DNA from: Spizellomyces punctatus DAOM BR117
Lineage: Eukaryota
DNA: 64,000 nucleotides
Direction: 5' to 3' (one strand)
Assembly: GCA_000182565.2 (NCBI GenBank)
Contig: KQ257462.1
The notes under the pieces were generated by a model. It had not been told where the DNA came from, searched no databases, and saw only the letters and a program-made list of their open reading frames with translations. Shown here in pieces: positions 26,901 through 49,866 of this stretch. Each line of letters opens with the position of its first letter. The stretch's first letter is position 1. Made by a program: the position numbers and the translations under genes.

Positions 26901-27293
26901 GCCAACATGCGGCCAAGCCCTAATGTGTTTGAGAAGCTTATCGTTGCGATGATTGATCAGGGCGATATGGTGACCGCGGAGAAGTTACGCCTGAGTATGG
27001 ACACCATTGGTCGTCATCCTACGTCGGAAACCGAGGCGGCCCTACAAGCAGGGTATCTCAAAAGAGGCGATCTGCTCTCTGCGCGACGGGTATTTGATGG
27101 AATGGCAAATCCAGTTTCGGAAACATCAATACCTCACCCGACGCGAACCAAGGAGTCATACCAGATGATAATAAACGCTGCCATCAAGGCAGGAAGAACG
27201 GATTTAGCGGCAGAGTACGTAGCACAAGCGAAAGGTAGTCCTTATGAGGCAGAATCTCCAGGGTGGGCGGAAAGCTTAGCGCTGGGGGCATAG
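23901..27293 (+). CDS. Pentatricopeptide-repeat (PPR) protein, probably mitochondrial
   Basis: Intronless 1130-aa ORF with an Arg-rich presequence and ~35-aa helical repeats (YAAMLHMHG, YVAVITAYG, YKAFIEALG, YNAVLRIMR, FNVMISGY, YELLITGL). Confidence 0.9.
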   Translation: MIRAGFGRAICHARRLSTIEIRALRHQPATPLLLDNHTLWKRKASTATQEASLAEGKERPLLDADIAQKIDVKADRDVTAEQAVPEEDWQQDNIALSLAETGAEKKVAAEGGKVIDDLLEDCAKDLKVATQRYLHLEESNRTADWTSVQYSHLINRVGNIPSQDLPTTVFDKVRQITRSRSIKLDEKAHLQMVRVYTAADIRRAQRYLAMESELEVERARITGEAPKSVQNRIQRLQKRMEACSSQAHADAAEELMQQAFDEGYRPRPSDYAAMLHMHGTRRNVASVEKWVQLLSERDVEIKLPIYVAVITAYGYLGDAYNAQKWFEKYVSTHGRRAEVYKAFIEALGRVGRAPLARDILERVMPEQKVQPTIDTYTAVSKVLGSSGDFVGAIEILGRMRADSVLAKGIEDAYSVILEQAILKGDYAVASDMFAHLKERRLPNFTYSQYGRLCIEQNHLDEALAVYRKIYSRSGMADPMFSGDLANSLIKAGRKSDAFRLLEIVHSASAKRKASSPGGDGNVFRLVPILMDAAKGDLKMLLRLQEIAESQGYYGSESKSPCGALLAAYQQKKDSVDLSIEDYRILYLSLFSSRKATSKDDLQKASFAFLKDMELKGLKPTEALSDLVISGFKGRYMVGAEIEWKKAMAKLDVKTPEISSEYASFITREEQQSLCRKIVSCCSSGNVAEALQIMEKLQKVNLFPDPFTVSRLILTLGSRGEFETVTQVFTKALERARTLRNLKVREHWEDSAFEAVIIAYTRAGYVSAAAKFFIESVTVLGRHPFAQKTYVWFFDTVGRSRGIANEDYADIYAVFEAYRDLVGAKTISLAVYNAVLRIMRKAGRYEHVVELARLMQEAEITLDPPTYQNLILSLIRSQRIDEAAKLFEKYLDEYWERMDITVFNVMISGYLAHDDFADALRVLKIAESADLRANVETYELLITGLARSEEYAGSALSLVHKMKESGLPVRPQVYESVILGTCSGKTKSLSVALQCYRAMEQANMRPSPNVFEKLIVAMIDQGDMVTAEKLRLSMDTIGRHPTSETEAALQAGYLKRGDLLSARRVFDGMANPVSETSIPHPTRTKESYQMIINAAIKAGRTDLAAEYVAQAKGSPYEAESPGWAESLALGA

Positions 27294-27480
27294 GCAGCAT
27301 AGACGCATGATATTGGATAGGCATACTTTTTATAGAATCGTTGGCGACCAATAGTGTGCCAGATGGGTGCCCCTACGCGCATATTTATGTTATACATTCG
27401 CAAACATCACTTATACTCTGTCAAAGGTCCTTATTTACAATGTATTGTACAAAAACTTTGCAATATACAAACAAAAAAGT

Positions 27481-30400
27481 TTAATGAGGCGTTCGAATGA
27501 GATATACCAGAACTAGACCATCCACGGTTCCAACGACAATAGACCTTTGGTTGGCGCCAACCGCCAAGGAGGTAGGCTGACTGGCAAGCGGGACCATGGC
27601 ACATACTTCTCCGTTAGCCCTCGCTTGCCTAACAAAGTTCTTGCCATTATGATCAGGCTGACTATCCACCTCTGAAGCCAGCCCAATATCCCAAACCCTC
27701 ATTATGTGATCCGCTGCAATAGTGATAATATATCGGGGATTGTCCATAAAGCTCCATAAGACAATTCGACCTGATTCGTGACGAAGCGAACAATGCCTCC
27801 ATGGTTTATCTAGTCGCATGACAACGATAATGCCGACATCTTGGGAGGATGTGTGATTCACGATATCGCCTTGCTCCTCCATTTCTACAGCAGAGTATGC
27901 GAATAATTTCCCTAGCTTATGCGATCGGCACTCTTGTATCTGTATGTTATCTCCCTCTGAACCACCAGAAGACCAGATTTCGCCATTGACCCACACACTC
28001 GATGCAGAGCAGTAGATAATTTGATGCGAAGCGGACCAGCACAAATCTTGAACACGTTCTCCTTCCCAGGTTTCAAATGTCTGAAGATCGTGCCCGGTAT
28101 GCGGATCTACCATATAAACGCAATTTCCGTTTGCCATGGCTATTCGTGTGCCATCCGGAGAGAATAGGCGGGACGGCAGAGATGTGCAGTGACGCTGAAA
28201 GAGAGGTGTTTGGTGGTATGTTAGTGAACGGTCTGCTCGCCGGAGTAGTTGCCAAGCAGTAAATGTGTCGTGGACTCCCCAAGTGTACAAGCACAGACCA
28301 TGGTGCTCTGTTTTCAGACGGCTGAGGGTAACTCGACGGAGGCGACTTGAGTGTAGAATGCGCAGAGATTCTTTATGATTGTGAAGATCGAAGACAATGC
28401 CTAGATTCCCACAGGCACTTGCTATATAGTTTTCCATCTTTGAAACGTGGACAGAGTTTGGTTGGTCGGGTAACGTGGTTTGAGTAATAGGACGGACCTG
28501 GGTAAAGTTTGCATCGATAGACCAGATGATGTAGGTCTTGTCATTGGAAGATGATATCAAGCTTAAACCGCTATTGGCGCTATTGCCGCGAGTGAAGTCC
28601 AGATGCGAAACAGCCTTTGTGTGATGAGGATCGGACACAGACATGAGTGGCACGATCTTTCCTTCATTCTTCCAACTATGTGTGTTGCACACAAGCAGTT
28701 GGTTTTCACTCGATAAGAGAAACCGTTCCCTTCCCCGAGAGGTGGCGGTACACATGTTCGTTAAGCACGATGCACCTGTATTCACCCGCTTAATCCAGCG
28801 TCCCGTTTCGACCTCTGCGACGGTGATCACACCGAGCGGTGTTCCGCAGAAAAGCAGAGTTTCATCCGCGGAGAAACTGAGGCATTGGATGGGTGTGTCA
28901 GAGGGGGTGTGAATCAATGCGCATCGAGAGTGATTGTCAATTCGCCATATCATGATTCCACCGTCGATGCGCGTTACCGCCAATAAATCTCGCCCGAGGG
29001 AGAATGCTCCTACAGATGTTGCCGACGTAAGTTCCTCGTTGAACCGACATATTTCCCGCATCTTGACCGCGTTGAAGACAATAATGCCTTTATTTCGGCG
29101 CGAATACGTGGCTATCCTATGCCCGTCGATGGAGTGAGCGATAACTGCATCAGAGGTGCCTTTTGTTTGAGTAGGAGGCATATCCGCGTCCAACACACTC
29201 AACACGTCATCTCCACGATCTGATCGAGGTGCAGACTTATTGGGCGCTTCAGCATCGAAGTCGATGCACTCGAGCTGCGTGTGTTCACCGGATTGCCAGA
29301 TGCTCTCAAGACTCTCAGAGAAAAATATGGCCCCTCCCCTATAGGAAGATTCTACGAAGGCAATCATTTTGCCATTTGACAGGTTGTACAAGCAAATGTC
29401 CTTATTGCGTAAGGCAATGGCGACCCTTTCAGCACCATTCAGACTGAAGCAGCACGCAACAGCTGAAGCTGCCGGAAAGGGTGACTGAAGTAGCACTTCG
29501 GTCAACACGTAAGAATCGATGTCCCACGCTTTGACTGTGCCCTCGTCTGTCACGGTCAGGCAGCATCGTCCAATGGCTTTCTGTACTTGTACGGTAACTG
29601 CTATCAGCTTCGTAGCTTCCGTTGCCACTATAATGGACTCAGCATGTGATTCGGAAGGCGTAATACATTCGAGCAGGCTGTCGCCGTGCGCTCTGTTGTT
29701 GCGTGACCGAGCATCCTGTCGCACGCTAGGGCAGGCTCCTTTTGGGAGATTATAGGCCAACGTAAAACACATTTTGGGATATTGGCGAAGATAGTGCCCA
29801 TACGTCTCGACGAACAGGTTGTAGTCACCCAGTCGGGTAATCAGCTCATTGTCGCTCTCCGTCTGGGCTCGCTTGAGAACCTCTGCGATGAAGCCGACAA
29901 CCTCATATCCAACACCTGCAACAAACGCGCTTTCAATGAAACCCAGATTACAAAGTACTCGCGCAGTTTCATGAGGAGAAAATCCAGCCGTTAACTGATG
30001 GTGAACAATATCCACTGCCCGATGAGAGTCATACTTTCGCCACTGCTGCTGTCCAGCGGATACCGTTATGCAGGTAGATGCGTAAAACATTGCAAGAAGG
30101 CGATGCTGATGGGTCACGTCGGCTGAGCTTCTGATATATCGCTTTTTGATGGCCGTCGTGAACTCTTCGTGGAAAGGAATCAAATGCCCCGACTCTGTTT
30201 CGGCAAGAAGATCTTTCAGAGATTCATAAATGAGATTCCAGTCCAAGAATGGGAGTTTCAACAGCTCAATTATTTCGACTTCTCGTAGCCCCGAGCGAGA
30301 ACTGGCGATTGCAGTGAGCGTACCAGCAATGACATCTCGACCATGGATCTGCTCGAATTCGTTCAACATTTGGTCAAACATGGACGCAACGTCAACCGGT

Positions 30401-33400
30401 ATGTCCAGATTTGAGAAAGTGCGGCCAAATTCAGTGCGCTTGATTTTTTTGAGTAGCAATGCAAGATACAATGGCTTGGAAAGATTCATCTTGGCAAGAA
30501 TACTTTGAACCTGCCGGTGTTCCACATCTATGTTCATACGAAGGCATTGCATCCTCAGGATGTCCTTCTGCTCCTGATTAGTCAAACCTCCGAGTTTCCA
30601 GCTTTTCGTGTCAGGATGTCTCTTTCTTAGGGCAGGAAGGACCTTCTCGTCAGCAGCACTGAATAACCAGCGTACTCGCAACAGAGTTTGGTTATCGACA
30701 TCCGCAATGGATGGAAGCCAACTGAAATCATGCTGTTTTTTGCTTCCCAAAATGCTTAGGCGGTCGACCCCGTCCACAATGATAAGCACGTTTGTTCCTA
30801 GCTTGGCGACCTTCTTCAGCTTTGTGGCAAAACCTAATATATTCTGCTCCGAGGTACCGGTCCCAATATCAATCCTTTCTGCCTCCAAGTGTTTTGACAA
30901 TTGTGTTTGAAATCGTCGAAGCATTTGGCTGATGTCAAAGGATCCATACCACGTTCGCACAAAATTTGTCAAAACAAGAAAACCATTCGCTTGAAACTCG
31001 GAGCATATCTTGCCTAGAAGAGTAGTTTTTCCCATGCCGCTTTCGCCATGGAGGAGCAAGGTGTTCTCCATTGGTACCTCGCCCTCTGCCGCTGGATTGT
31101 TGTTTATTGATAGGAAGGCTCGGCGGACATGTTCCAGTACCTCTGATCGTCCAGAAAAATCGGTCAGATTGCTGACGGGAGCAATGGGCAGAGAACTGAA
31201 GTCTCGCAAGTCTATGCATTGTGCGATGTCTTTGGCTACTTGTAAACCCCAGACTTCCAGACCGCCCATTTTGACTCTTCGATCTTCGATCCGGGAGAAA
31301 TAGCTTTGATAAATGTGAACTGGACACCTGGACTCTGAAAGTTGCTGCTTCAGTTTCTCAACCCGTTCTATGGCTCTTGAGTTTTCTGGTTCGTACAGCG
31401 ATCGGAAGCTTTTTGGGACAGAGCGGGTGAAAGCGGCATCGCGGAAATAAAATATGAACGAACTATTCTGGACAGGTAGCTCTAGAGCACAGTCGATTTC
31501 AATTTCCCACAATTTTGAGTGCGCTTGCATCGTGCCCTGAACTTCAAGACTCCTGTCGGGAGAAGAATCGCCGAGTTTCGAGCCAATAATTGATAAGAAG
31601 ATGTCTGCACGTCGAATTTGCCATCTACTTGCTTGAACATAATCACTTTCACTAACACGGGCACTTGGGTGCCCAGCACGGAAATCCACGACGTGTAGCA
31701 GAATATGTTTGCGCAACATTTTATGTTGAAGCTGAGGTAGTATGTTACTGTAAAAATATTCTCGTTCGTTGTAAGTGTCTGGTGTGGAGCACAAGTAGAC
31801 AGTGACGTAGCGGGTAAAGGTGGGTGCACTGCCAGCGGAGGAGGCATGGAAAGAACTTTTCCCCCAATTCAGCTCGCTTAAATGCTCAAGATCGGCGATA
31901 CTGAACGGCTCCGAGGAACACAAGGCAGTCACGCCATGCAAATACAATTCTGAAGGAGAAACTCGCGTACGCAAGGATAGATCAGGTAGGCTATTATCCG
32001 GACTGTCCAGGTGTACGGCAGATGAGTCGCTGATCACCTGCGCAGGCACACTGATTTCATATTCACTCATCATATTGGTCGCTGGGGGTTCACCGGCTCC
32101 AGTAGTCAGGGGTCCTTCATTTTTCACATACAATCGCAATACCAACGGGGGAAGGATTGACGAGCACCCAAGAGCTATAGCTTCAATAGCTTCATTCTGG
32201 ATCCTTACGTTCCTTAACAGTAGATCTGTCAGTATGTACGAGGACTCGGAGAGAGTATCCTTCGCTTGCAGGCAGTTCATTTCGTTAGAGCCCACGTGGA
32301 ATTCTAGACAGCTTTTGACTCTCTCGAGTGGAACCGCATGCGTGTTACAATAACCCATCATGGCAGCATGCACCACTTGTGTCACTGATATGGGTAGCTT
32401 CACGCTGACGAACTGCAGTGGATTCGAGATGGTACATCCTGAGAGGAATTGTGCAGCAATTCCAAGCTCTTGAAAATATGATGAAATCTCGTACTCTAGA
32501 TGTTTGGGTGCCAAACACCATGAGTGGGGTATTCGACGAGCTGTCAGAATTTTCAAAATGTGCCGACTTTCGTACGTATCGCATCCACTAAGGATTGCAT
32601 CTAGCCCTTGTTTCACGCGGCGGAAGACAAGATTGTAGCGCCCCGCTTCTCTCAGTAAGAGTGTCCGTCCATTTTGAACTCTGGAGGCTGACTCATAAAG
32701 ATGGCGAACACTCGGCAGTCTAGGTAAGGTCCTCCAAAATCTTCCTATTTTACTTAGGAAGTCTTTATCCAGCATCGAAAGGGAAGAAAGGGAAGCTTCA
32801 CTGGCGTGTAGCGCAGGGCCGCATGGACAGTCGAGCAGCAGCTGCAGCTTCTCAGATACCCTCTTCCGTAGCCGCTGGCAATTGATCGTGCCTGCGCCGA
32901 TTTTTGAATCTAAGGACTCTTGCGCAGATAGGTGCTGATCATTGTCAAAGCTTTTCTCGAAGTTTTCATAGTTGACCACGTCGAGTTCTGATGGTTTAAC
33001 GTACTCATCCAAAATGGCAAGCACGGACGATCGGACGCTTTCTACGCGCTTCTTCTGATACCTAGGTGCCGCCTCCTTCAGATACACCGACTCCAATAGC
33101 AATGTTTCGGATATAGCCGGTGGTAAACCCCTGTTCCTGGCTTCTGCAATTATCGTGATCGATAGGTCAAAATCTACATCGTTAAAGTAAACGATTTTGG
33201 AGAACATCGTTTCGGGCCTTCTCGCTGTCACCACGAGCCCGACATGTCCATAAATGACGGAATAATATAAACGATCAACAGGGAGAGGTTGCTTGTTGTC
33301 GCGAACTATATAGTGCTTGCAGAAATGCTTTGCGAGGTGCCTGTTGTGAAGATGAGAGTAGTCCCAAATGAATGAGTTCGACCTTGCTCTTACCGAAATG

Positions 33401-36400
33401 ATAGATTTTTCTCGTGAAAGCAAACACGAACAAGGGTTGGCACATCCGCAGGGAGCCTTTCCTGTACAAACGCCGGGCAGAGGAACCACATCCGAAAGCT
33501 GGCAGCAGATTTCTGCACCATGTAAATTATAGCCTTCAATTGGCCAATCCAGTACGCATCGGCGTGAATAACCAGCCAATCTCCGTTTCCCGCAGCGTGA
33601 GAGACCTTGTCTTTCCACTTGTCACCTGCTTGCCATTAGCATACATGCTGCAAACGCAAATGAGATTAAACATACCACGCTTATCTTCTTCTGTCATTAT
33701 AGTTATCTGTATCTGTGTCCCTTCGTAATCTTCACAGCCCTGGACCACCAGACGATGTGTATCGGCCAATTCATCGGTCACAATCAGGACGATGGAATGG
33801 TTCCCTTGCAGACGCATGAACTGATCGCTACTACTGTCTTCTACAAGCAAGCCATAGCTCGTCAACATATTGACAAGGACTGGTTTTAGCATATCCGGAC
33901 GATTAATCCTGCATATTGAGTGTTAGTCACAGCAGTCATACGCCATCTCTACATAACACAGCACATGATGATACGTACAGGGTAGCGACAAATTTCTCCA
34001 TATTAGAGAGCCGACGACTCCAAACGTTGGTAGACGAAGTAGTTTCAAAAAAGTCATATGCAGCGCATTCTGCATTGTGTGTAGCAGTAGTCAGGAATTC
34101 ATGCAAATCTGGCCAGCTGTCCAATTGAGAAAGAATAGTGGTCTGCAACGGTGTTCATAAAATCATTAGCGTCCACTTAATTTGCGACATGTCGCTGGTT
34201 GCATACCGTATTTAACTCTTCTGACTGGTTTTCATTCAAATACACCAAGACCTTTTCGAGAAGATTGACCTCGTTTCGGCTCACTAGACCCCGACGACGA
34301 GCATTCACAGTTGCTAGCACAAAGTGTACCGGTATTCGGTCCTCTTCCCGCAGCATATCATTGACCTTGATCATTAGCTGTAGAGTGAGTGCATTTGCTA
34401 CCTTATTGACCGCGGAATCGCTAAGCGCAGAAACTTTCAGGGTCGAGACTTCATTTCGTAGACAGTCATTGAAAATTTGGGTGAAGACCTGGTCATCGGT
34501 GGCATACAAACTATTGAGTAGCTTTATACGCTTGAACGCAGTATGGAGCTCACACCCGAATGTGGCCAGGCTCATGAATGGTTTATACTGGGGCAAAATA
34601 TCTGACTTGAATGCTTTGTATGCCTCGGTCATCGATTCAACAAGATAACCTTCACGTTGAAATAAAATGATATCGTGCATGAGATCCTCGCTGTCGGTAA
34701 TACTGCAGGTTTCCATCATGGTTATGCATGCGTCGAAAGAACTTTCGCTCGTGTGCTTCTTGGAGGATAGCTTCGCCTCTACGGATCTCAGTAAGAATTA
34801 ATGGTAAACGTGCATAGGTAGAATCAATATTCATTAACTTACGCATGCTTTTCCGCTGCTGACTGAAGCTTGGTGTGGCATTGCTCATGATAAAGTCAAA
34901 GAGTAGGCTTTGGAGGGTCGTCCCACAGTGCGTAAAATTTACGACCTGAAATTTATCGAGCATTGGTTCATTTGCCACGCCAGCATCTGCAAATACGACC
35001 AGCGGAGATCGTTGGGTAATGCTCGTTCGTAACTCCTTCAGCCTCTCCTGCTGAAATTTCAAAATCTCTCTGCCCAACTCCTTGCTAGTAAGGCCTTCTA
35101 TCCAAATTGGCTTCCAGCTTCCCTTTAGCCTGTTTAGCTGTTCTACAAAATCCGGGCGTCGTGCGTCCAAACGATCCGGTTCGCTTCCTTCAGATGTTAG
35201 GTATCCATACTGCTCCAGTATCAGTTTGGCTAAACCATTCGGGTCGATAAGCCATTTGTCACGTTTTGTTGCATGCATCAAGGTCAGATTTTGTCGAACA
35301 ATCTTGACTTTAAAGAGAGCTGAATTGGCTGGCATTCTTGTATCTTTCGTTAGGGGAATATTGGCAGCATGCCCATTGATATGTCGCTTGATGAGATGTC
35401 GCCATACGTCCTCGAGCTCAACCCTTTTTTCATCCGATAACGGGCCGAAATAGGCAAGAAGCCCACTGCGCATGAGCGTATTTGCCAGTAACAATTCTTT
35501 ACGGCTGCCGAGAGCATCAATACGGCTTTGGATTTTCTTTGACAGCTGTTGCAAAGACTTGATGAAGCGATCTTGGAACTGCAAATACTTTCCTGTTTTT
35601 TTGCCATCATGGAAGGCACAGGTGGCTTGGAACATCTCGGCAAGAAGCGTGAAGATGGATTCAGAAGCCCTTGAACGTTCGGTGACTGGGGGGTCCCACA
35701 GATGCAAGGGTTCTCGTACAGTACCAGGAATATTGACATCTACAGTAATAAGAGCTACCCCTCGCAATTGGCTCGGTTGCTTCCGAAATCGTTCTATTGT
35801 CGGATGTAGGAGACCAGCCTTACGAGCGCGAATCATAATCAACTCATGAACCTCTTTAGAGGGAAAGACCAAACCTGTCGCCGCTCGCAAGGCAATAAAT
35901 GCTTTGCGATGCCGAAGAGGTGAATGCTTTGCACCAGCCTGTTTTACTGGTAGGACCACATCCGCGCCGGAGGTTCCGTACTCTGCGAGGTATTCGGAGA
36001 ACGCCCTTTCTGCGGCAATAAACACATCATTGGTGACTTCCAGCTGAATGACGTTGTCCCATTGATTCGCGGATTGCCTTCCGTTTCGACTTAGTTGTAC
36101 ATATTCTGGCAATCGTTTCAGAAAAGCGGTCAACTTAGCATAGGCCCTAGAGGAATAAGGATAAGGGGGTAATTAGGTGGCCTTAAACCGACGCGATCCT
36201 ACTTGATTCCAAGAAGTCCCCCCATATTCGTTTTCACGGAAGACTCGATCAGGTTTATTCGCTTTTCGATTTGGTTTGCCAAAGTGAAATAGAACACTTT
36301 CCAATCCATGTCTTTAGGATAAACAAATGTGACTCCCCATCCGCGGCGATACGACATCCATTTCCAAAACTCTTCATCTGCCAATAAATCCGCCCACTTT

Positions 36401-39400
36401 CGGTTGACAGAGGATCCACGAGCAAGGGTTTTGCAGTCGATGAACGAAAGCACCTTCAATCCCAGCTGGCACGGAAGCTCCCCTACTATATCCACGTATA
36501 GGCGATTAACCTGACGTACAGCTATTGCACGCAAGCATATAAGGTTTTCTCCCTCTAAGCCGCTTTGTATCAAGTCCTTCACCCTCAGGTCGCCGATTTT
36601 GACATTTGCGATTTCTCGCAAGAACAACGTGGGATTCCGCATCACCCACTTCGAAAGTAGGGAGAAGTCCGCATTCCATCCTACGAGTGCGCAACCAACT
36701 TTGATAATTTTCGTCAGCAACGGGTTTGGGTTAGAGGCTGTAAGATGGAGCTTCATTAGGGTGAGATCCGCAATTTCCAGCCGTCGACGAATATCCTGTC
36801 AGATGAATTGGTATTGGTAAATCCCACGATCAGCTGAGAAACGCCGTCGCGGAAGAATTCATGCCTTAATGGTGTTCACAATGACTTCAAATGACCAAAA
36901 CTCTGCTCTTCCCGCGTATGCTGCAGACCATTTCTCGTCAAACACCGCCTTTTTCTGCTTCACAACTTCTTCGGCTTCACGAAGCGAAATCATTATCCGT
37001 TGATGCTTTGCTTTGAAGGAGCGGATTGCAGGAAGTATGTTAGACACCGTTATTGCGGCACGTGAGGCAACAAAAGGCGTAATTGCAGTGGAAGCTGCCA
37101 CGTTTTTATCTGATCATTTGAGATATGCGAGGATGAGTGAGAAAATAGTAGCAAGCAACATACGCGACAAATGCTGATACCGTATAGAACTGGACGATGG
37201 TAACCAAAGGCATTTGTTGGCTGCTTCATTGGAACCGGTAGCGTTTCAATGCTACAAGATCGTAGCTAGGAGAAGGCGTATATAGGTGAAATCACATGAG
37301 ACCTTTAGCCGCAAAGTATAAGATAAGCACCTTGTCGTAAACTACAGTTGGTGTCGAGTGCGCTGGTAGCTGCAATAAATCCAGCAACGAGGCTCTCGCT
37401 TGCAACACGTAGGGATTGTCCGCAGGTTCCAGTAATTCTTCAATATCTTCCATCTTGAGAGACTCGAACAGATCGCGAATCGCTTTCAATTGCTTTTGTC
37501 CTTCTTCAACATCCGACGCCAATCTTTCTCTTAAAGTTTTAAGTTCATATAGCGCCGCCTGATAATCACTGTGAGCAGCGGCGACCTTAGGATTTTCAAA
37601 GACAGGAGTATCATCCTCGCAGTGGAACGCTTGCTGCATCCATTGACTTTCCGAGATGTGATCAGCATGTCCGGGCTCGTGAGCATCGAAGATGCTAGTT
37701 GGAGAGAAGATTTCGTGAAGGAGAGCAATGCGACCAACCAGCTCACGTTTAGTGCTAGCAAGAATGGAATATTGCCGTTGGAGGTTGGCACATTCTCCGG
37801 TAGATTCTATAAGCTTATCGCGAGATTTTGATAGCCGAATGTGAGCATTTGCTGACCCTACGACACGTTTTGCAGTATTCAACCGGCTCTGGGATTGCTC
37901 TTCTTTGATCCGTCGTACCTCACGAGAGGAAGAATAGAGCGTTTGAATCCATGCACATAGCTCGCGTGCAGCAATCCCGACTACCGCACACCGGTCGGGT
38001 CTGAAAGTCGGTTCCTCCATGATTTTCTTGAGTTTATCGAGTACCGCCTCCGGAAGTGTATCGGCCGTCAGAGATGAGATGCGGAATATAAAAGAATGAC
38101 TTGCAATGACTTTTCGGGCTTCCGTCCACGACTGTGGCTTATCGAACAGAATGCAGATGGCGCTGGCAAGAAACTGAACAGGAGGTGGTGGATCTGTCTC
38201 AGCTTTCAATTCCTCAAAAGCATCCTTGCGAAGAGCCTGCAGGCGCCGTATGCTTTGTTCCAAATTCTGCCGTGCAGCGGCTAGGCACGCATCCGCAGCA
38301 TCTTGTTGTTTTTGGCGCCACTGTCGGTCTATGCTTTCTTCGTCGCTCTTTAGTTCCTTTCGCAATTTTTCTACATCCATTTGTTTTTCTTTAAGCTGCT
38401 TCGTGACCACATTTAGTTGTGCCATTGTCGATTCCAGCAATGCTGGGAGATTCTGAAGTTGGCTTCGTGTGTTGTCGACAATCGTTTTCACCACTTCCCG
38501 TGCGTCACCAACTTTTTTCAAACACCGGCGGAACTTCTGATTCTGAGAAATAAGTTCGTTTTTGGTATTCATATAATATTCTGAGACGTGTTCAAGGAAT
38601 TTTTCGTAGCCATTGATCGGCATTGATTTCAAGAAAGGATGTGACCCGCATTGGATTGCATGAATTACCGCGAGGAACATCTGCGCTGTGCATGTGCTTA
38701 GGGATTCGGCAGAGGTGGACTCATCATTAACAGCCTCCAAGAGCCCTGAGTCTGCGAAATAGTTTTGTGCCAGCGTTCGTAGGGATGTTTCATTATAGTC
38801 ATAGTAGATATCGATTGTCAGGCTCGAGATAATTTTGGGATATTCGGCTGTCAAAGCACATCAGTCGAATGGAACAAGTATCGCATGCTATACGAAAAAG
38901 CAAAAATCGCATACCCAGCTGATCCAGGACCATTAGATTTGCCATATCCACGCATACGACTATCTTCAAGTTTGTTAATGTTCTCTCGTTAAGTTCTCTC
39001 TCAACATCCAACGCGCTCAAAGCTTTTCTATTCTCCCCTTTTACCAACCCAAGAACCGCTCCCCGCGATATCTTTCCTCTCTCATCCCGCTCCGTCTGCT
39101 TGGCCTGATGTGCAATTTTGCTCAACATATCGTCGTACTCTCCCGATGTCCATAACTGGACCGATCTGCCGCGATCAAGAAGAGCATTCAGATCCCCCAA
39201 AAAAGTAGGATTGAGCGCGCATTCTGCCGGGAGAAAAATTCCGACAACAATTTTTTGGAGCGAAATGGCGGCGTCGATGATTTGCTTCCGAATGAAGAGG
39301 CGCCAAGTAGGAGTATCAACTGGGCCGATTATATTGTACTCTCGGAATCGATATCCTCGCATTGCAGAGGCTTGTTTTGCGAGGTCTTTTTGCACATCGT

Positions 39401-42400
39401 GGAGACAATGCCCAATTAGGAGCGCACTTGGATATTGATCATCGCCCAAAACCCTGTCCAGCCTACAGAAATGATCGATAGCTCCAGGATACAAGGTAAT
39501 GTCTCTCTTTACGAGTCCTTTTGCATCTCCCTGAGTGGTGAATATAGATATGGCTTCCTTAATAAGTTTCTCGCTGACCCCGCGGTAGGCTGTTCGATCC
39601 ATGTATGCTGCTTGGGTGAGCGATACGGTGGACTGCCTTATTGATGGTGAGAAGCCGAGCGTAAAAATAGATCGGTTTGTGTCGCGTTCATTGGGACGCA
39701 CAGCCATCGTTGTCATATCGGAATACAGATATGACAAGCTGGATGACGGTGCTGTCTGGTGAAAGTATTGCAGACAGACACGACCGACGATATCGTGGTA
39801 TATCGAGGTGTCGCTAGGGCTTATTCGATCCTATGAAAAGGTCATTATAAGCTCACAGGAATGGGCTTCCAGGCAAGGATAATTACTCACCAAATAGACT
39901 CTGTCAACCTCAAAGCACCATGCAGTCATCAGCGACTTGCTACTCATCCACTCTTCCTCACTAATTTTCATCAAGCCCCTTAGAACTTTAGCTGCATCTG
40001 AGGGCACAAAAATCCTTATTCCTGATCGTAGTATTCTCATTTTAATCAAGTGGTGACACCGGAGGGTTGCATCAATGACCATGTCGACTTTGTTCCCACG
40101 ATGATGCATACATTCCAGAAACGATCCTCGCATTTCGCAGTACGCATCCGCATCATGGAACCTGAACACAATAAAATGACGCGCAAGACGATGCGTTGGG
40201 GCTTCCAAATCAGAGCATCCGAGGATCGAGATGCGTCTTACAGCTCTAAAAGTTGTAGCGTTGCTCCAGTATCCACCCATATCCGGAAAGGAGCGCCAAA
40301 ACTCAGCTACCGGAGATGGTGAAGAAGGCCGCGCGGCCATAGGTATATGTAAATCGTCAACAAAAAGGGTCAACGTTTTATTATTGGGGGGAACGTACGC
40401 CGCGGTTGCTTCATCTCTTACAAGGGTTTTATGCAACTGAGCGTGAAATTCCTCTGGAGTGGATGTTGGATGGAGCATGTGTGTATGAATGATAGTCTTC
40501 TGCTCTGGTAGGTTGGCGAGAGTGCGTTCCGCAGCAAAGGTTTTGCCGGCACTCGGGCCACCGGTAAACAGAACGCTTTTGTGGTGCTGAAGGAGCGTAC
40601 TGGCGAGGTTCCTAATGTGGGAAATGACACTATGTGTGGGCGATGGTGTCCATGATCCAGTGACAGTGTTGAACACCAGCAGGAACAGACTGGGACCTTC
40701 GTGATGACTATGGAGTACGGCCCAGAGCTGACTGGAAGATTGGTTGTCTTCCAGCAGTCTATATATAGTGGCTTCAAATCCTTTCCGATGCTCCACATCG
40801 ACGGCCAACCCGAATGACCACACTACAGCGTACCAGAAGGCGTCTTCAATTACTGCTTGACAATCTTTCTCGAGACAAGCTTCCCCTAAGAGACACTGTA
40901 AGATTCCCAGAAAACTACTAACGGATGATTGAAGATCCATTCCCCGGAGACGGCAAATCTCATCCAAAGAGGATACTAATTCCTTCATATAGATGCCAAA
41001 GATAGCCTTTAAAGTGCATTGAAGCGCTGTAGCGAGCGGCGAGAACTTAGGATCTTTCGGTATCTGGTATATCCATTCGGAAACGCAGACCTCCCACGTC
41101 CACTTGGTTTTCACATGCACGAGACTGAATCGCGAAATAAATCCAGCTGAGACGTTATGGATATCTTCGGCTTCCCATATGAGGGTTACATTCTGGGACA
41201 ACATTAGCCTTTTCCCTGTGCTTAAGCACAGTGCGCTTGGGTGCATCAACGAGGCGACCGCCTCGGTCCAGGAGGAGGAGTACGGGCCGTCGAGATGAAT
41301 CCACGCGGGATTAGGGCTTGAAGCGAGATCTTCTAAAATACCTTTTGTGAACCCCGTTTGGGATGGGGATCCAAAGAGAAGAGCCGAGGAAAGTGCAGTT
41401 GGATTGATCGTGTATAATGGCATGGAATTGAAACGAGAAGCTGCGCGGATTGTCGTCGTTTTACCAGTTTGTGGCGCTCCAAGGACGAGAACGTGGGTGC
41501 CTGGTATGGATGTTGCAGTGAGGAGACCGCTGATGGCATTTTTCAGATGCATATGCAAAGGATCACAGTCGGGAGTTACGATATCATTGCGGATATTGCA
41601 AGGGGGGCCTGTGGATATGGCCTCGAAGGTTGATCCAAAAACGGCTCCCAAAACGTCCCTCAATATACCAACTTCTTCTCCGACCGCCTTCAGCAGTCCC
41701 CACTCCCATAAACACTTCGCAACAACTTCGAGCTCAGCAAAATTGTCTCTCATCCGCTCCATATACCGGCAAACAGATATTACACTTCTCACGGATCCCA
41801 TTCGTACGCCCAGCCCCTCGCACCCCCGCCAGAAGGCGGCAACTTTTGCGGCACAGCTTTCTGCATCCTTGAACCCCGCATTCCGTAGCAATACGGCGGT
41901 AACAATTTCAACTCCAGGTAAACGTAATGCAATCGGTACCATCCGATTCCGCACCGTACCCCTAAACAGATCATCGTCCATCTTCTCTGACGTTGCAAAA
42001 CATCTTACATGCACGACCGGCGGTAATTTCATCACTCTTCCCAGAAACGATACAGAAGAAAGTTCCTTTCGTGAGGATGCAGCTGTTAGTTCCCTAACCG
42101 CTTCTAGACCCGCCAAGCAAACGCCCAAAGAATCCTGGCTTAATCTGTCCAATTGCCGGAAGACAAGAAAACATCCTGTCAGGACCATCCCCGTCAACAG
42201 CCTCCGCATGACCGCACTTGAGACTGCCGGAGAACAGCAGCATACGACCGCAAATCGACCAAGAATTTGCGTAAATTCGAGGAGAAGGGTCGTTTTCCCT
42301 GTATCAGGTGGACCGTGCGATAAGATTCCATGATTGGAAATTAATCCAGGCCAGAGGTTAGTGAATGTTCTGGACGAAATACCCAGAGCCACACGGGCAG

Positions 42401-45400
42401 TGGGCGGAATGTATTCGAAGCCGTACGAGGCATGGTAAAGATCTTGAGAGATAGTCACGGTCACTTCGTCTTCGTCGTAGTGATATTTGAGCGCATTCAG
42501 CCATTCCAGCGACGTTTTCATATTTTCCGTTGTGCGTTGGGCATTTAAAAGGCATTGAATCCAGTCACGATGAGATAGGGTAAGGGTCAGAAGAATTTTG
42601 GCTAACTTGTCTGATCGGGTAGTTAGCTTCCTGATTTTGTCCAAGGTTTGCGACAATAGGGTGTCCAATCCGCCTTTGATGCCCAAACTATTTTCAACCT
42701 CGAGCGTCCGTCGTACTTGGTGGGCTAAAACTCGAATTTGTTCAGGAACATCCTCACCGTCCTCGTCGCTATTTTTGTTTCTTAAAACGGTGAATATTAT
42801 CTCCTTGAGAGTGGATTGAATCTGCGTCTCAATCTTGGAAAGCAATTCTTCGATGCTCAGATGGGAAGTGCTGATGAAATTACGAAAAATCAGAGCTTCG
42901 CTTGTCCCGGATGTGGTGGATCGAATGCCGGTTATTTTGTGGTCCTGCGCTGCTGAGGCGGAGGACTGATGGATAAGAGAGGTAAAATAAAAGTATCTAA
43001 CATAACAGGTGGGATATTGTTAGTTCATAGATAGATAACGTTTGGCCCATCTCGTCGTAGGAACGTACTTTGACAAATATCCATTCAACTCTTTGGGTTC
43101 TCTCTTAACCTTAACCAGCTCCAGCAGTTCCTCATCAGCGCCAAAAAACAATCGCGGAAACCCAATCCGCTTTCCATCTAACCACCCTTGAACATCCTCA
43201 ACCAGAGATCCCAGAACGCCCCTCATCTCCGTCAATCCCTCGGCCAGATCTGGCGCAGCGTCCACCAATGCTTTCATTCCCAAGTTCTTCTCAGCCTTTG
43301 CTAGGAGGGCGCGGTAAGTAGTTTCAACGGCTCTATATCGTTTGGTTTCCAATGGAAGCGCCAGCTGAACCTCCGTAGCATTAAAGAAAGAATGGGTCGA
43401 GAGAAGAAGTGGCTGAGTTTTGGACCATTCAGTAAGAGATTTGAGAGCTCTTTGAAGGTCGTTTTGGAGCGCTGTAAATTGGTCAACGTAATGTTCAATT
43501 CCTGGCTCAGATGACCCTTCCAACAGCAGCTCAACCGACAGCAAGTCCGATTCAATAACGCCGATAAGCCTCTCAAAACGGCTGATAACTGACAGGCCCG
43601 TTGCCTCATCCCGCATAATCTGGATGGAAAGCTGGGCAAACCGGTTTTGTATCTCAGAGAGCGTGCTCGAGAGAGACTGTTCTTGCTCTGCTTCTTGGAG
43701 AATTTCCAAGAGGTCTTCATATGTCAGCCCTAGATTTCGCCGTCCGATGGTTTTAGTGACAAGGGAAAGAGGTGTGGTGGTGATGTCAAAATCGGCCAAG
43801 CCCAGAGCGTTGCGAACGGAATCCCAATGCCAACTACGGAATGAATCATAAGTAAGGACTTCCACAATAGGGTATTCCGTCTCAAGAAATGCTGCTATTT
43901 CTTTCGCAGCGTGCTGCGCGATAGGTGGGTGCGCAATGCCCGTTGGTGTAAAAACTTCTAGTAGTTCCGCACAGCGCTTCCGAATCTCGGATGCATGAAT
44001 ATTACAGATTGGCTCATATCGCCAGCGGTCAAGATCTTCTCGATATTGCAGTAAACATGTGACCAAAACTCTACGAATGTGCATTGATGTATGTAGGTTT
44101 TGCAGTTGCGACAGTCGTTGAGTATCATCAATACACGAAGCTTTGCGGATGATGACGGCTGCGATATCAAGCGCATTTACTATGTGCTTGGAGATAGGTG
44201 TGAGAGACTTGAGCGTAATTGTGGTGGGATGATTCTGTGCTCTGGCGTCCTCATGCTCGTCATCTTCCGTCCTATCCTCCTCTTCTTCCTGTTCCTCGTT
44301 ATCCGAACCACTGCTGCTTGTAGCGTCACCGATTGGTGTGGTCAGTACCTTATCCAAAGCAGCCTCCACCTCATCCCACAATTCAACTATCATACACATT
44401 TCCTTCTCCACAACGGCGCTCAGTCGTTCAATGGCTTCACTCACTGCTTGTTTTCTCAATGCAGCAAACTCGGTCAAACGGTCATACATGGTGTAGGCGT
44501 CGTAGAAGCGCGTCACCAACTCATCATCTACAGCCCACTGTCGTTCGTCCAGAAACGATTTGAGTGACTTTACAAAGCTAGTTTGGCCTTGCAGAAGAGG
44601 AAGAGCAGCATCTAGAGACTGCAGAGATACGGACGCAGATTTTGTTTGATCAAAGTTGCCGGGGGGTGGGTGCGTGGTATACGTCGTGTACACATCATGG
44701 ATTTCCTGTACTTTACGGTCCAAGAGTCCTTCCAGATTGGTGAAAATCCTTCGTCGGGTCTTCGAAACCCATTCCTTGATCTCGCTCTGGAAGTTTTCAC
44801 TGAATACAGCAAACATCCCACGCGGAGTTACCTTTGCAAGACCAGCACAGTGTTTCTCAACAATGGATATGTCCCGCAATTGGGCATCGCACTTATTTAA
44901 GATATTTTCGGCCGGGTTGGCGATATCAACATCTAGCACTGACACATGCGAGGCCGAACGAACTCGCGGCAGTATTGCAGCCGACAGCCAGTTCACGAAA
45001 TCACGACATGAGTCAATCCCTTCGTCAATCATTTCAGAGCAAAGCTCCTTCAAGAATACGTGGTCCTCGGGCGTCGGTATGTACGGCCCAGTAGGGAATT
45101 TGCATGAAATTGGGGTGAGCATGCAGGACAATGATTTGTTGAGAGCAGATTTCCACGATTCAAAGTCAGTGCTGAAAGTAATACTATAGTCGGCGTTCCA
45201 GTCAAAGATGAGGTCAACTCGGATGCGTATGGCCCCTTGATGGAACGACTTATATATATCGGTTATCTTTGTTCGGAAGATGGGCATAATGGTCGATTTT
45301 GCGATGACAGCGACAAAGAATTTGAGAAGGGAGCGGGCAGTCTCAGCATCTTGTGCCTCCATAGTTGATAACATCGTTTCCGCTGAGTCCCTGGGTTCTA

Positions 45401-47687
45401 CCTGATGCGCTCGAAAAGCCGTAGTTACCGCTGCTGATAGTACATTACCAATGTGCTCCGAAACAGTTTGTACGAATTCCCCATGTATGTGTGCGCATGC
45501 TTCAACAAATTCTTTGGGGGTAAAGAAGATACACCTCGTGTTGAGATCCTCAGAATCGTACGGGATTTCTCCACGTCGCAGGACATCACTAATACCATCC
45601 TTCAATAATCTCTGACACTCGTTTCGCAAGCAGAACACGGCATCGGTGCATTTCTGCCGATAAAACTCAATGCGCGGATATAGCAGTGCTGCTAAACGTG
45701 CTACTTGACCTTTCACGGAGGACGTGACGCGGATCCGCTCATCTTGCCAGTGTAATTCTGAGAGTGTTGGAATAGTGAGGGGCTGAGGAAGGAACCTTTG
45801 CAAGTGACCGCTACAAAGAAGGGCAGCTTCGATCTGAGATCTTGTGTAATCATTCTGAATTTCGGCCCTAAGATTAATGAGAACCTCCGGTGCAAATGTA
45901 AGAGATTCATCTTCCTCTTCTTCGGTCTCCCCGGCGTGATCCCCCTTGCCAATGGTAGTACCACATATGAACTTGGTCCACTGTCTTCTTTCTTTCCTTC
46001 TCTTCCTTAGCTCATCAGCTAGTAATCGCTCAGACGCCCTCACTGGCGCATTGGCTATATAATCTTTCAGAAAGGGCCGTGCGATTGCAACACATTGGCG
46101 AAGCGCAAGACGATATTCAAACTCAACACGGATGGCATGGGCATGTAAAAGTTTCTGATGGTGGGCATTTGGCGTTTCGTGAGGTAGCAGGATGTCGGCA
46201 CGAGTAAGTTGCGTTGGCGGATTGCGGCGTTCTGGAAGGGGTTCTTCCCATTTGATAGTATATCTGTTGTCAGTCGGATCATAGGAGAGGACAGTACATG
46301 GATGCCAGGCAATGGCAGGCGCCAATGCAGGGTCGGGCGTATCAGGGCCACTTGGAGCTTGAATACCTGGAGCTCGGCCCTTGGTGCGGACACCGGCTTT
46401 GTCCAATTGGGTCGAGAGAGGATCAACTAGTTGCTGCTGAGCGTCTTCGTGGTCCATAAAGAAATCTATTGGGAACGTGTGTCCAAGACGTCTCCCAGGC
46501 CTAGAAATGGGGCGGTCGGGGAGTGATGTATAATGCCGGTCGATATCCTTCTGTTCTGTCAACAGAATCGAAGGTATGTGAGGCACTTCGTCGCCCAGCC
46601 ATTGTATTACATCTGCAGGAGTAGGTCTACCATCGTTGATGTGCTCCTCCTCCCTCTCTTCCCCTCTCATTTTTGGCATACTGACACCTCGATACCCTTC
46701 CATTCTTGCCTCTATTCTAGATGGCGACGGAGTCAGCCGTTTAGAAAATCGTCCAAGTTTAGGCAGCGGGTATTGTTTCGCAATATGACTGACCATGACA
46801 TGCCCATCCTCTTCATCAAAGTAGTAAGATGGAATGCGATGGAGCCCAAGCTGAGGTGGTAGGCGAACGTATACTTTCGGGCCCGCCGTGCCACCAGTAG
46901 TACCGATGGGGACCAGAGCATGGTCTGCGGCAGGTGCCAGATGCCTGTCTGAATGCTGTACAGTTGCTGGATCCGGAACTACCGATGGTGCAGTCCATGC
47001 AGTCCGAAAGATATCCGCTATTACTTTAAAGAACAAGGATTTTGTCTCTCTGGAGAGAGGCCGGCTCTTTCTTGGCAAGAAGAGATCATCAAGAGGTTCG
47101 CCGCCCATCATTGTAGCTCGACGAGCAGAGATAATTCTTCGGCCCCTGTCGCCATGGAGAACAGATTCCGCTGATGCGGAACCCAATCGGCGACCCGTGG
47201 CTGCAGAGGGCGGTCTGAGAAAAACCAGCTCATCCAGTTCTCGAAATGCGTTTAATCTTGTTTTCTGTTCCTGAGATAGATCAGCGGTACGTGGGCGAAT
47301 GATCCGATTTGATGAGGAAGGAGTCGCAAAGCAATCCGATGTCAAATCATCGGATTCGTCAATGAGATGGATAGGAGGTCCATAGTGGACATTGGACGTC
47401 AGGTCAAACGAGACTTTTGATGATCTTTGGGGATAGTCAAACCTCCCTTTACCCAAACCACGCTCTTTTCCAAAAAAGAGCTCCAGAAAGCGTTCTTCTG
47501 CTTGCTCCCAGCGGGATCCTGCTTCATCATCATTTTGGGTTTGATTTTGTTCATCGCCTGAAACTGATTGGATCTTTGTATATGGCGGCTGCAAGGTATT
47601 GATGTCGTCCTTATTAAAATCATCCATAGGAAGAGAATCATGCTTCCTTTCTGGCTCACTGAGGCAAGCCCCATCAGGAGGTTGCAT
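27481..47687 (-). CDS. Giant (~6,480 aa) fusion: degenerate axonemal-type dynein heavy chain with an internal F-box, followed by a DUF4062-like domain, NACHT NTPase and WD40 repeats
   Basis: 13 exons: 47687-43069, 42996-39891, 39830-38915, 38847-37331, 37265-37181, 37109-36865, 36795-36203, 36146-34843, 34778-34207, 34142-33979, 33908-33676, 33625-33394, 33340-27481. They total 19,446 nt (divisible by 3) and the junctions are phase-compatible. Dynein motifs: KRIGFPRLFF, YGFEYI, GPPDTGKT, WIHLDGP, FVDDLHIP, EVDRVYLDRI, PPPPV, WLIDPNG, GDWLVI..FRMWF. NACHT motifs: GESGMGKT and IIVDGVD. Confidence 0.8.
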
Positions 47688-48683
47688 ATTCTGTTATCCA
47701 GAGTCGCGATCCTTCCCTCCGCTTGCTGACTTTGCAAAACGCGTTCGCCTTGTGAGTCAGTCCAAGCCACTCACATGTGATGTGGCAAAGGCAAAAAGAA
47801 CCTTTAGCGCGTTTCTCCAAGAAATACGCTGTTAAGAATCGAACCCTCGAAATGATGACAAAGCAGCAAAGATCAGCGATAATGCAAGGGACACCATCGC
47901 ATGTCTTCCATCCCATGTTGATGATCTTGTTTATCAGTTAGAGATGGACGATTATTATCTTGGGGCTAGCTGCGAAAACTTTGAACTCGTCCACGATCTT
48001 GCCTGTAACGGGATCTCTTTGGCACGCTGCAGCAAGGAGAAAAGCACGACAAGGATGACGGCATTTGCCTATCTCTTGGCTTTGCCTCCTTTCAACCCCC
48101 CAGCTCCAACATTCCACGGGGTGATCGGTGTCCCTGAGTGGTCTCCGGCCCTGATCTCAACGCGCAGCATCTGCTGTGATGCTACATAGCCTCTTTCGGC
48201 AATCCCAATGCGCGAACAGTCCGCGCTGTCAAGGAGGATTACGTTTCCACCATGCTGATAGGAGAGATGGCAAATACAATGCCTCCGTGGTCAGCATCAT
48301 TTTTATACATCTAGCCAGCAAGAATGGAGAATTTGTGAAAGAGGTGTGGGGAACACACTATCCAATCAGGACGGATCAAGATTGTAGATCCATGTGCGGA
48401 CACTGAAAACATGGTCGTTGATTAGAAGGCAAGGGTGCTTGATCTTGCAAATACTTGATCAAGTGGTATTACCAGCGAGTCCAGCACAAATTATACATCT
48501 TCCAAAAACACTTGGAATGTCCAATCGTTATATATGGCCCTGAAGAATGCTATGGGCCACGGGTGGGGATATAAATAACCCAACAAATTCAATCCCCCAT
48601 TTATCAGCCAGAAATAGCTTCTTCAAAGTTATTGCAAGTAGTTCTGAACCTCATCCTCCCCATTCCTTTGCCGTGTTCTCGCC

Positions 48684-49866
48684 ATGCATCTCCTCTCGTC
48701 CATCGCGCCAATCTTCCTACTTGCCACATTAGCATCGGCAAAGCCGGTACCGCGATCGGACCAAGTCGTTCGGTGTACCCTCACCTCCGATGCGCAGATC
48801 GCCCACATAAAGGCATCTCACCTTGATGTCTGGTCCCACAGCCTTGGTCTCAACCACCCTGCAGACATTCGGGTTTCTGCTACCGAAAGAGCCCAACTGG
48901 AGGCCACAGGGGCAAAATGTGATGTCTTTATCGACGATCTTGCTCCTCTTCTTGAAGCAGAACAGCAACCTCATCTGGCAATTCGACAAGGACCAAGTGC
49001 GCTGGCCGCTGACCCGTACTTCTCAAGCTATAAGCCTTACTCTCAGATCGTCGACAAAGTCAAAGCATGGGCGCAAGCTTATCCTGACCGCGTCAAGTAC
49101 TTGGGCAGCATCGGCGCGTCAACAGAGGGTAGAGAAATTCCCGCGTTCAAGATTACGAATAACAAGATTCCAAGTTCTTCCAAAAAGAGCATCTACTTCA
49201 ACGGAGGAATCCACGCCCGCGAATGGATTTCCTCCGCGACGGTGATGTACGTTGCCAATGCGCTCATCACATCCACTGACCCCCAGCTCTCCGACTTCCT
49301 CGACAAGGTCGAGTTTTACATCACCCCGATATCTAACCCAGACGGATACGAATATAGCCGTACGCAGGACAGGTATTGGCGGAAGAACAGAGGCAGCAAC
49401 TCGAACTCAAACTGCGTAGGTGTGGATCTCAATCGTAACTGGGACGAACATTTCGGAGTTGTGGGCGTAGATTCCAACCCATGTTCCGAAACTTACAATG
49501 GTCCATCTGCGTTCTCGGAACCGGAAACCAAAGCTCTCTCCAAATTTATCCTCTCACTTCCCAACCGTATCGCTGGAATTGACTGGCATTCATATGGCCA
49601 GTACATCCTCCGTCCATGGGGATGGACAACAACAAAGAGCAAGAATGAAGCCCTCTACAAGGCCCTCGGTGATGGTGTTCGTGACGCTATCGCAACGTTC
49701 AACGGAAACCGATATAGCTCAATCACCGGAGCAGAACTGTATCCTGCTTCAGGGGCCACGGATGACTGGATGACCGCCAAAGCTAAAATGACCGGTTTTA
49801 CGATCGAGTTGAGAGACACGGGTCGGTATGGCTTTCTCCTGCCAGCCAGCCAGATTGTCCAACCGA
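48684..49866 (+). CDS. Secreted zinc metallocarboxypeptidase (M14A), 3' end lost in an assembly gap
   Basis: Signal peptide and prodomain, then GGIHAREW (HxxE), WRKNR, GVDLNRNW, DWHSYGQ, LYPASG and TIELR. No introns in the visible part. Confidence 0.95.

Follow-up and report, generated by a model that had tools for sequence, protein, structure and literature searches.

In the present study, we analysed a stretch of 64,000 nucleotides (nt) from contig KQ257462.1 of Spizellomyces punctatus DAOM BR117 (GenBank assembly GCA_000182565.2), hereafter the window, and found that an F-box encoded by exon 7 of the giant gene SPPG_06767 is a constitutive and conserved part of a chytrid-specific giant dynein heavy chain. 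Few eukaryotic motors are conserved as well as dynein heavy chains, and a ubiquitin-ligase recruitment module in the stalk region of such a chain would be unexpected, the more so when the main catalytic site is apparently lost and a NACHT-WD40 tail is fused to the same polypeptide. The host family has been in the literature since 2016, and automatic annotation flags the F-box: SPPG_06767 carries a UniRef name that begins with 'F-box domain-con…', and the Pfam model PF12937 appears in the precomputed domain lists of the proteins P0005, SPPG_06767 (P0107) and P0109. The family spans four chytrid orders, including Batrachochytrium dendrobatidis, and since 2016 it has been known only as an odd 'class-10' dynein.

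The minus strand from 36798 to 36202 translates as one open frame of 199 codons, in which DIVGELPCQLGLKVLSFIDCKTLARGSSVNRKWADLLADEEFWKWM occupies residues 103-148 (36492..36355). This peptide is an exact match to the one quoted in a preliminary description of the same DNA, which had proposed an F-box inside a dynein gene at 36355-36492, and DWKVFY is found 16 residues past it in exon 7. The Pfam F-box-like model PF12937 matched exon 7 at a score of 31.4 bits, over its curated cut-off of 24.3 (expectation value, E, 1.6e-7). When the F-box exon was compared with PDB sequences by phmmer, 37 matches were listed, with the best E not below 0.016. F-box proteins made up 23 of these, FBXW7 first and then Fbxw19, FBXO6, GID2, FBXW8, FBXW11 and beta-TrCP, and the remaining 14 were coronavirus 3C-like proteinase or polyprotein chains with E values of 0.3-0.97. 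An AlphaFold2 (AF2) model of exon 7, built together with 12 relatives, reached a mean predicted local distance difference test score (pLDDT) of 72.6, with values of 69-89 in the F-box. The top ranks of a Foldseek search of the PDB with this model included F-box chains from Skp1 complexes, namely Fbw7 (7t1y_B), Fbs1 (2e31_A) and Fbs2 (8zuh_A), at probabilities of 0.95-0.99; none of the 119 PDB matches lay at E<=0.001. In the model, the C-terminal half of exon 7 is predicted to be an F-box plus linker.

With the F-box exon as the query, HMMER was run exhaustively against 1.84 billion representative proteins and returned 102 matches at E<=1e-3, 18 at E<=1e-10 and 3 at E<=1e-30. All orthologue data given here are predicted gene models. 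Giant orthologues were found in Spizellomyces sp. 'palustris' (6481 amino acids, 92% identity), Phlyctochytrium arcticum (6419 amino acids, 45% identity), Borealophlyctis nickersoniae (6579 amino acids) and Gorgonomyces haynaldii (6161 amino acids), and a further search added Entophlyctis helioformis (7433 amino acids) and Batrachochytrium dendrobatidis (7006 amino acids). In Rhizophlyctis rosea and Homolaphlyctis polyrhiza, partial models hold the segment at the same relative position. Overall, giant orthologues from four chytridiomycete orders keep the F-box segment at this relative position. The collinear orthologues span 6.1-7.4 thousand amino acids and align end to end in the long models; P0005 (residues 60-6477) and P0006 (48-6417), for example, form a single alignment at 38.7% identity.

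Conservation extends to the F-box residues themselves. Both F-box Pfam models matched all of 13 sequences at E<=0.01 (best 2.2e-13), the set being exon 7 of the window and 12 of the 18 relatives found at E<=1e-10, those of at most 707 amino acids. Invariant in the 13, which share 23-37% identity with exon 7, are D103, W135, W145, G153 and W154, and at least 90% conserved are L108, P109, K146, F158 and Y170. Few residues are thus under tighter constraint than the hallmarks of an F-box (LP and two Trp), and the same holds for the next block, GWG-x-x-F…PK…DW-x-FY. The window shows the F-box pattern, as do 17 of the 18 aligned relatives; the remaining one, P0010, keeps the LP half and is without both Trp. 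Among the seven long orthologues, from each of which an 86-residue segment was taken, PF12937 exceeded its cut-off in six. The seventh, the Borealophlyctis nickersoniae model (P0010, residues ~3756-3841), scored 14.2 bits and is without about 32 residues of the second F-box half, which is probably an annotation or gene-model gap and not a true loss. Because the segment is conserved across relatives, we do not consider the F-box match a product of chance, and the proposed F-box was borne out by the exact peptide, by PF12937 and by the relatives.

The continuity of exon 7 with the rest of the gene was addressed by threading. The public 6481-residue protein of S. punctatus DAOM BR117, SPPG_06767, named an 'uncharacterized protein', threads onto the gene with zero unresolved residues, and its tblastn identity in exon-only pieces is 98-100%. 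Eleven of the 12 introns are of the GT-AG type and one is GC-AG, and all of them keep one frame. The limits of exon 7 in the preliminary description (36795-36203) were returned unchanged. This exon is without a conserved start codon; conservation begins at its first residue, ahead of any Met, and in every long orthologue the exons on either side of it are conserved and in collinear order. Its length is not a multiple of three and therefore it cannot be skipped in frame: exon 6 joined to exon 8 reads GGC CTA TGC TAA, with a stop at the fourth codon. Retention of intron 7 gives an immediate in-frame TAG from the first bases of the intron. Furthermore, the dynein C-terminal region, the NACHT domain and the WD40 repeats lie in one uninterrupted exon (33340..27484). 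A separate transcript for exon 7 is indirectly contradicted, as far as sequence can tell, by the missing conserved start, by the stop after skipping and by seven orthologous models that are collinear.

For intron 6, the GC donor is preferred because the VNTIK that it retains has counterparts in all six long orthologues aligned. A rival in-frame GT donor (36879) stands 15 nt upstream, and its use would delete these five conserved residues. Two introns suggested by splice-site enumeration, an 84-nt GT intron (36879..36796) and a 193-nt intron (37302..37110), were ruled out by threading and orthologue conservation. Exon 5 (85 nt, 37181..37265, minus strand), which encodes LRSCSIETLPVPMKQPTNAFGYHRPVLY within the insertion that holds the F-box, was missed by plain joining of open frames and recovered by threading; of the six long orthologues aligned, five have a counterpart of it, and the Homolaphlyctis model has a gap over this block. 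In an RNA-Seq run under the same species label, 278 reads fell on 27400-47399; the F-box bin (36071-36737) had a depth of 0, most of the giant gene body had 0-0.24, and there were no splice joints among the reads. Two other runs gave nothing for this part. The reads neither support nor contradict transcript continuity.

The position of the F-box within the dynein was examined from both sides. The exon upstream of the F-box exon (P0003) matched isolated structures of the dynein microtubule-binding domain (MTBD) in phmmer, namely 6rzb_C (residues 205-318), 3j1t_A and 2rr7_A, and the microtubule stalk model PF12777 gave 42 bits against a cut-off of 24 (E 8.1e-11). P0003 aligns to axonemal dyneins over the AAA4 small domain, the first stalk coiled-coil helix (CC1), the MTBD and the first ~55 residues of the second helix (CC2), and its likeness to solved dyneins ends at residue ~375-380. 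An AF2 model was made for 1060 residues of SPPG_06767 (2951-4010) with eight orthologues as the alignment (mean pLDDT 65.4, predicted template modelling score 0.33). In this model CC1 (8-134), six MTBD helices (138-217) and CC2 (222-310) are followed by ~620 residues of helical and some beta modules, among which the F-box helices occupy 655-696, and a late long helix (931-976) leads into AAA5. Foldseek gave 56 matches of the model at E<=0.001, including the whole-stalk structures 5ayh, 8i3j and 3wuq at E 7e-7 to 5e-6 with template modelling (TM) scores, normalised to the target, of ~0.5. The CC1-MTBD-CC2 hairpin is a normal dynein stalk. The insertion region is conserved in six long orthologues, and the exon between the F-box and AAA5 (P0002) had no PDB sequence match at E<=0.01. 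As the insertion exits ~88 residues into CC2 and comes back just ahead of AAA5, the F-box would lie near the base of the stalk and not at its tip. That it follows the MTBD and precedes the WLIDPNG of AAA5, which we take to be the counterpart of the dynein 'IDPQ' motif, had been claimed before and was confirmed by alignments and threading.

The preliminary description had also spoken of MTBD-like segments in the plural. One canonical MTBD is clear; for the N-terminal half of exon 7 the likeness came from weak Foldseek matches and not from profiles. Dynein MTBDs formed the second Foldseek class of the exon-7 model (6kjo at probability 0.94, 6rzb, 6kjn and 9fqr_K2), all at E>=0.95. This half may be MTBD-like in fold, as modelled, and profile comparison gives no support. 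The idea of tandem MTBD repeats in the insertion was not upheld and is no more than a hint: a hidden Markov model of the N-terminal half found no second copy in six long members, and hhalign gave probabilities of 0.3% for the MTBD against this half and 2.1% against the preceding block, with controls at 0.1-1.8%.

The remainder of the gene is that of a divergent dynein. The order of Pfam domains is DHC_N2, AAA1 (AAA_6), AAA lid, AAA3 (AAA_7), AAA4 (AAA_8), stalk, F-box, a sub-threshold AAA5, NACHT and WD40. AAA_6, AAA_7 and AAA_8 scored 75.3, 76.2 and 41.4 bits, all over their cut-offs, and AAA_9 for AAA5 reached only 11.2 bits against 27.4. Inspection by eye showed motifs of AAA5, AAA6 and the C-terminal region, WLIDPNG and GDWLVIH among them, and Dynein_C (PF18199) is present in precomputed annotations only for P0017 and P0109. 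At AAA1, the GK[T] of Walker A is kept in five of five orthologues, and the Asp-Glu of Walker B is missing in SPPG_06767 and in the same number of orthologues, where RQ, RN, QN, TH or RH is read at this place. This pattern suggests a conserved, non-hydrolysing main site. The last frame of the gene, of 2046 codons, carries the NACHT domain and the WD40 repeats. The NACHT Walker A and an hhhhD[GE]xDR Walker B are conserved in six of six family members, and weak NPHP3-like matches are seen upstream of this domain (NPHP3_N 25.6 bits against a cut-off of 24.8). For the WD40 region, ANAPC4_WD40 gave 31 bits against 22.9. The Pfam matches and the single threaded gene place the propellers on the same polypeptide as the F-box, as had been supposed.

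By description rather than by phylogeny, SPPG_06767 fits the class-10 dyneins. According to the main text of Kollmar 2016 (Mol Biol Evol 33:3249, PMC5100056), these are confined to Chytridiomycota and Neocallimastigomycota, with a 'unique region' of great length at AAA5, no identifiable strut, and a C-terminal tail of ~1,500 amino acids with seven WD40 repeats. The motor end ('from AAA5') and the tail are described there as one exon, a single-gene conclusion was reached for the class, the new dynein classes were argued to be axonemal from tail homology, and figure 2 includes both S. punctatus and B. dendrobatidis. The gene studied here is likewise chytrid-restricted, all named family members being Chytridiomycetes, and has the long unique region at AAA5 and the WD40 tail; the ~620-residue insertion corresponds to the unique region of that account. 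It differs in that the exon shared with the tail holds only the AAA6 end, the C-terminal region and the tail. Beyond what that main text describes, it has the F-box in the unique region, the NACHT domain in the tail and the Walker B loss of AAA1; the words F-box, NACHT and P-loop have 0 occurrences there. In our literature search, only Kollmar 2016 was found to describe class-10 dynein, and no paper was found on an F-box or NACHT domain in a dynein heavy chain or on the SPPG_06767 tag. Class-wide conservation of the F-box, its place within the unique region, the apparently dead AAA1 site and the tail NACHT were not found in print.

Other known systems share parts of this architecture. Inner-arm dyneins of the DNAH2, DNAH6 and DNAH3/7/12 types have in common with it the linker, AAA1-AAA4, CC1-MTBD-CC2 and recognisable motifs of AAA5, AAA6 and the C-terminal region. 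Over 1401 motor residues, single-headed inner-arm-type dyneins are the closest matches outside the family (E 1.5e-46 and weaker, against <=1e-108 within it). In contrast to them, the present gene has lost Walker B of AAA1, has a 620-residue insertion with the F-box after CC2, and ends in a NACHT-WD40 tail of ~1,450 amino acids. DNHD1 is also a highly divergent dynein-like protein, but it is a distant match (E 2.1e-12) from another family, with no F-box, NACHT or WD40 listed. For the F-box, the nearest PDB sequences are those of FBXW receptors such as Fbw7/Cdc4 and beta-TrCP, with FBXW7 on top, then Fbxw19, FBXW8, FBXW11 and Fbxw12. In these receptors a short linker joins F-box and WD40, whereas here ~2,900 residues comprising AAA5, AAA6, the dynein C-terminal region and NACHT lie between them. 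The lowest root-mean-square deviations in Foldseek were those of proteins with a sugar-binding F-box-associated (FBA) domain, FBXO2/Fbs1, FBXO6/Fbs2 and FBXO44/FBG3 (2e31_A, 2.7 A over 73 columns; 3wso_A, 2.6 A; 8zuh_A, 3.5 A), with E values of 0.025-0.16 by sequence and >0.7 by fold; no FBA domain follows the F-box here. The heptapeptide DWKVFYF (exon 7 residues 164-170, 36289..36309, minus strand) stands identically at the equivalent place after the F-box in bovine FBXO6 (8zuh_A), and the phmmer alignment of the two runs on through it. The tail resembles the NACHT-WD40 signal transduction ATPases with numerous domains (STAND), such as fungal NWD/HET-E and those with an NPHP3-like N-terminal region, in which NACHT with Walker A and B motifs is followed by WD40. 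Unlike in those proteins, the module is here a dynein C-terminal tail that is one-to-one across chytrid orders, and not expanded or variable.

The explanation to which we incline, with a little more confidence than doubt, is a microtubule-docked, non-motor dynein scaffold that would serve as a predicted adaptor of the F-box/WD40 type for a ubiquitin ligase. The dynein part would no longer be a motor and would form a large docking scaffold on microtubules or the axoneme. We propose this because the MTBD and stalk are canonical, the AAA1 Walker B is lost throughout the orthologues compared, and the new dynein classes have been argued to be axonemal in the main text of Kollmar 2016 (PMC5100056). 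The F-box would recruit Skp1, probably with Cul1-Rbx1, beside the stalk, and the distal WD40 propellers may pick the bound proteins, possibly gated by the NACHT NTPase, so that the whole chain would be a ubiquitin-ligase adaptor held on microtubules. An F-box plus WD40 logic is proposed because many of the nearest PDB matches are FBXW-type, the WD40 repeats are present and the NACHT motifs are kept in every member compared. Most speculatively, the targets could be axonemal or microtubule-associated, with a possible tie to the way in which the retracted axoneme is cleared with the help of the proteasome; in chytrids, axoneme degradation is in part the work of the proteasome (Venard 2020 as cited in PMC11772885). 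The fullest form of this proposal makes class-10 dynein a NACHT-gated receptor of an SCF (Skp1-Cul1-F-box) ligase docked on the axoneme or microtubules, whose WD40 propellers would present axonemal substrates and drive proteasomal destruction of the internalised axoneme at encystment. We hold that full form to be distinctly unlikely.

Several points weigh against the adaptor explanation. PF00646, the other F-box model that had been named for a profile check, scored 18.4 bits with exon 7, slightly below its cut-off of 20.5, and every Foldseek F-box match of the exon-7 model has E>0.1. No junction between exons 6, 7 and 8 is covered by RNA reads. The placement of the insertion at the stalk base depends on an exit point taken from a low-confidence model. 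The Walker B loss of AAA1 is read from alignment, and AAA3, which keeps Walker A and Asp-Asp, and other AAA sites could cycle. The gap of ~2,900 residues between F-box and WD40 is unlike that of any FBXW protein, and hence the two need not cooperate. A role in flagellar retraction or axoneme turnover is speculative: proteasomal degradation gives it a plausible background, and the link of the protein to encystment or axoneme turnover goes no further than taxonomic coincidence.

The same F-box evidence would also fit an F-box that binds Skp1 outside an SCF ligase, with Skp1 as a structural or regulatory subunit at the stalk region; Skp1-Ctf13 in the yeast CBF3 kinetochore complex, Skp1 in RAVE and LC1 on the MTBD of outer-arm dynein offer analogies. 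A location by the stalk and MTBD is where accessory subunits could tune microtubule binding, and the long distance to the WD40 repeats speaks against classical receptor geometry. However, most F-box proteins do work in SCF complexes, and WD40 propellers on the same chain fit the logic of a substrate receptor, and we regard this alternative as rather doubtful. The F-box fold may instead have become an internal structural element of the insertion, packing on helices or on the AAA ring, with Skp1 binding lost. Its first helices reach a pLDDT of only 53-64 in the 1060-residue model, where they lie among other helical modules, and conservation in the flanks (YVDI before, GWG..F..PK..DW.FY after) equals that of the F-box itself, a sign that a larger unit may co-evolve. 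Against this, the best-conserved residues are the F-box hallmarks, and low pLDDT can also be explained by an F-box without its partner, as isolated F-boxes are typically poorly ordered without Skp1. A purely structural element is, in our judgement, unlikely.

A gene-model artefact, with exon 7 part of another transcript, separate or nested, or with neighbouring genes merged into one, would account for the F-box bin without RNA reads, for the absence of splice joints among the reads and for the unusual GC donor of the upstream intron, and it gains from the orthologue evidence coming from predicted gene models and not from proteins. It conflicts with the conservation of exon 7 from its first residue before any Met, with the collinear conserved flanking exons of all long orthologues, with 12 of 12 introns measuring 50-72 nt in one kept frame, and with the stop within four codons when exon 7 is skipped. 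The dynein C-terminal region shares one uninterrupted exon with the NACHT-WD40 tail, and the main text of Kollmar 2016 (PMC5100056) takes the same single-gene view of the class. We therefore consider an artefact very improbable.

If the adaptor explanation is true, a dynein has been turned into a positioning scaffold; if the NACHT-gated SCF receptor is true, it would be the first dynein heavy chain repurposed as a ubiquitin-ligase adaptor. The F-box gives a concrete handle on class-10 dynein through Skp1, Cul1 and substrates. A candidate process for it is the destruction of the retracted axoneme, which involves the proteasome, and we know of no ligase that has been identified for this destruction in chytrids. 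If the F-box is inert, the finding reduces to a domain-shuffling curiosity in an already described family. The coordinates of the features are collected in the table.

Table. Features of the giant dynein heavy chain gene, in positions of the window
Feature	Position	Strand	Details and basis
Giant gene coding region	27484..47687	-	13 exons, 12 introns of 50-72 nt, 6481 amino acids; SPPG_06767 (P0107)
Dynein linker DHC_N2	43068..44105	-	PF08393, 129.5 bits, E 2e-37
AAA1 Walker A, GPPDTGKT	42291..42314	-	Intact; aligned to DNAH9 GPAGTGKT
AAA1 Walker B position, FRQLDR for FDEFNR	42144..42161	-	Alignment to DNAH9
Stalk coiled-coil helix CC1	38237..38617	-	AF2 helices 8-134 of the modelled part; alignment, Foldseek
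Canonical MTBD	37901..38248	-	Upstream-exon (P0003) residues 205-320; phmmer, PF12777
Stalk helix CC2, part before the insertion	37709..37900	-	Alignment, AF2, Foldseek
Conserved insertion of ~620 amino acids, holding the F-box	35590..37708	-	SPPG_06767 ~3261-3880, introns included
Intron 6	36796..36864	-	69 nt, the gene's sole GC-AG intron, immediately upstream of exon 7; threading
Exon 7	36203..36795	-	593 nt, 197 amino acids plus a split codon; helical N-terminal half, F-box, post-F-box block
Exon 7 N-terminal half, conserved helical domain, possibly MTBD-like fold	36499..36795	-	Foldseek, weak
F-box domain	36352..36480	-	Exon 7 residues 107-149; SPPG_06767 ~3602-3644; PF12937
Conserved post-F-box block GWGVTFVYPKDMDWKVFY	36289..36342	-	Exon 7 residues 153-170; alignment of relatives
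Intron 7	36147..36202	-	56 nt, GT-AG, directly downstream of exon 7; threading
WLIDPNG motif, start of AAA5	35234..35254	-	Threading, alignment
NACHT NTPase of the C-terminal tail	30553..31062	-	Between dynein C-terminal region and WD40; PF05729, 33.2 against 26.7 bits
WD40 beta-propeller region, C-terminus	27502..29565	-	Many Pfam models, E 1e-7 to 3e-19

Some observations were made at the neighbouring loci. Just upstream of the giant gene, a divergent neighbour (48648..50021, plus strand) encodes an M14 zinc carboxypeptidase (PF00246, 292.9 bits). On the other side, an open frame of 1137 codons (23880..27293, plus strand) is convergent with the giant gene and was judged by eye to encode a helical-repeat protein. 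RNA depth was high only in the bin at the convergent 3' ends (27403..27484). There, poly-A loose ends behind 27484 (11 reads) are compatible with the plus-strand neighbour, and poly-T loose ends before 27421 (3 reads) with a minus-strand poly(A) site of the giant gene ~60 nt past its stop; together they point to 3' untranslated regions that overlap by ~60 nt. Farther away, two gene fragments were found, one with a pyruvate kinase barrel (18689..19309, plus strand; PF00224, 218.7 bits) and one with a Cid1-family poly(A) polymerase-associated domain (7397..9727, minus strand; PF03828, 69.7 bits).

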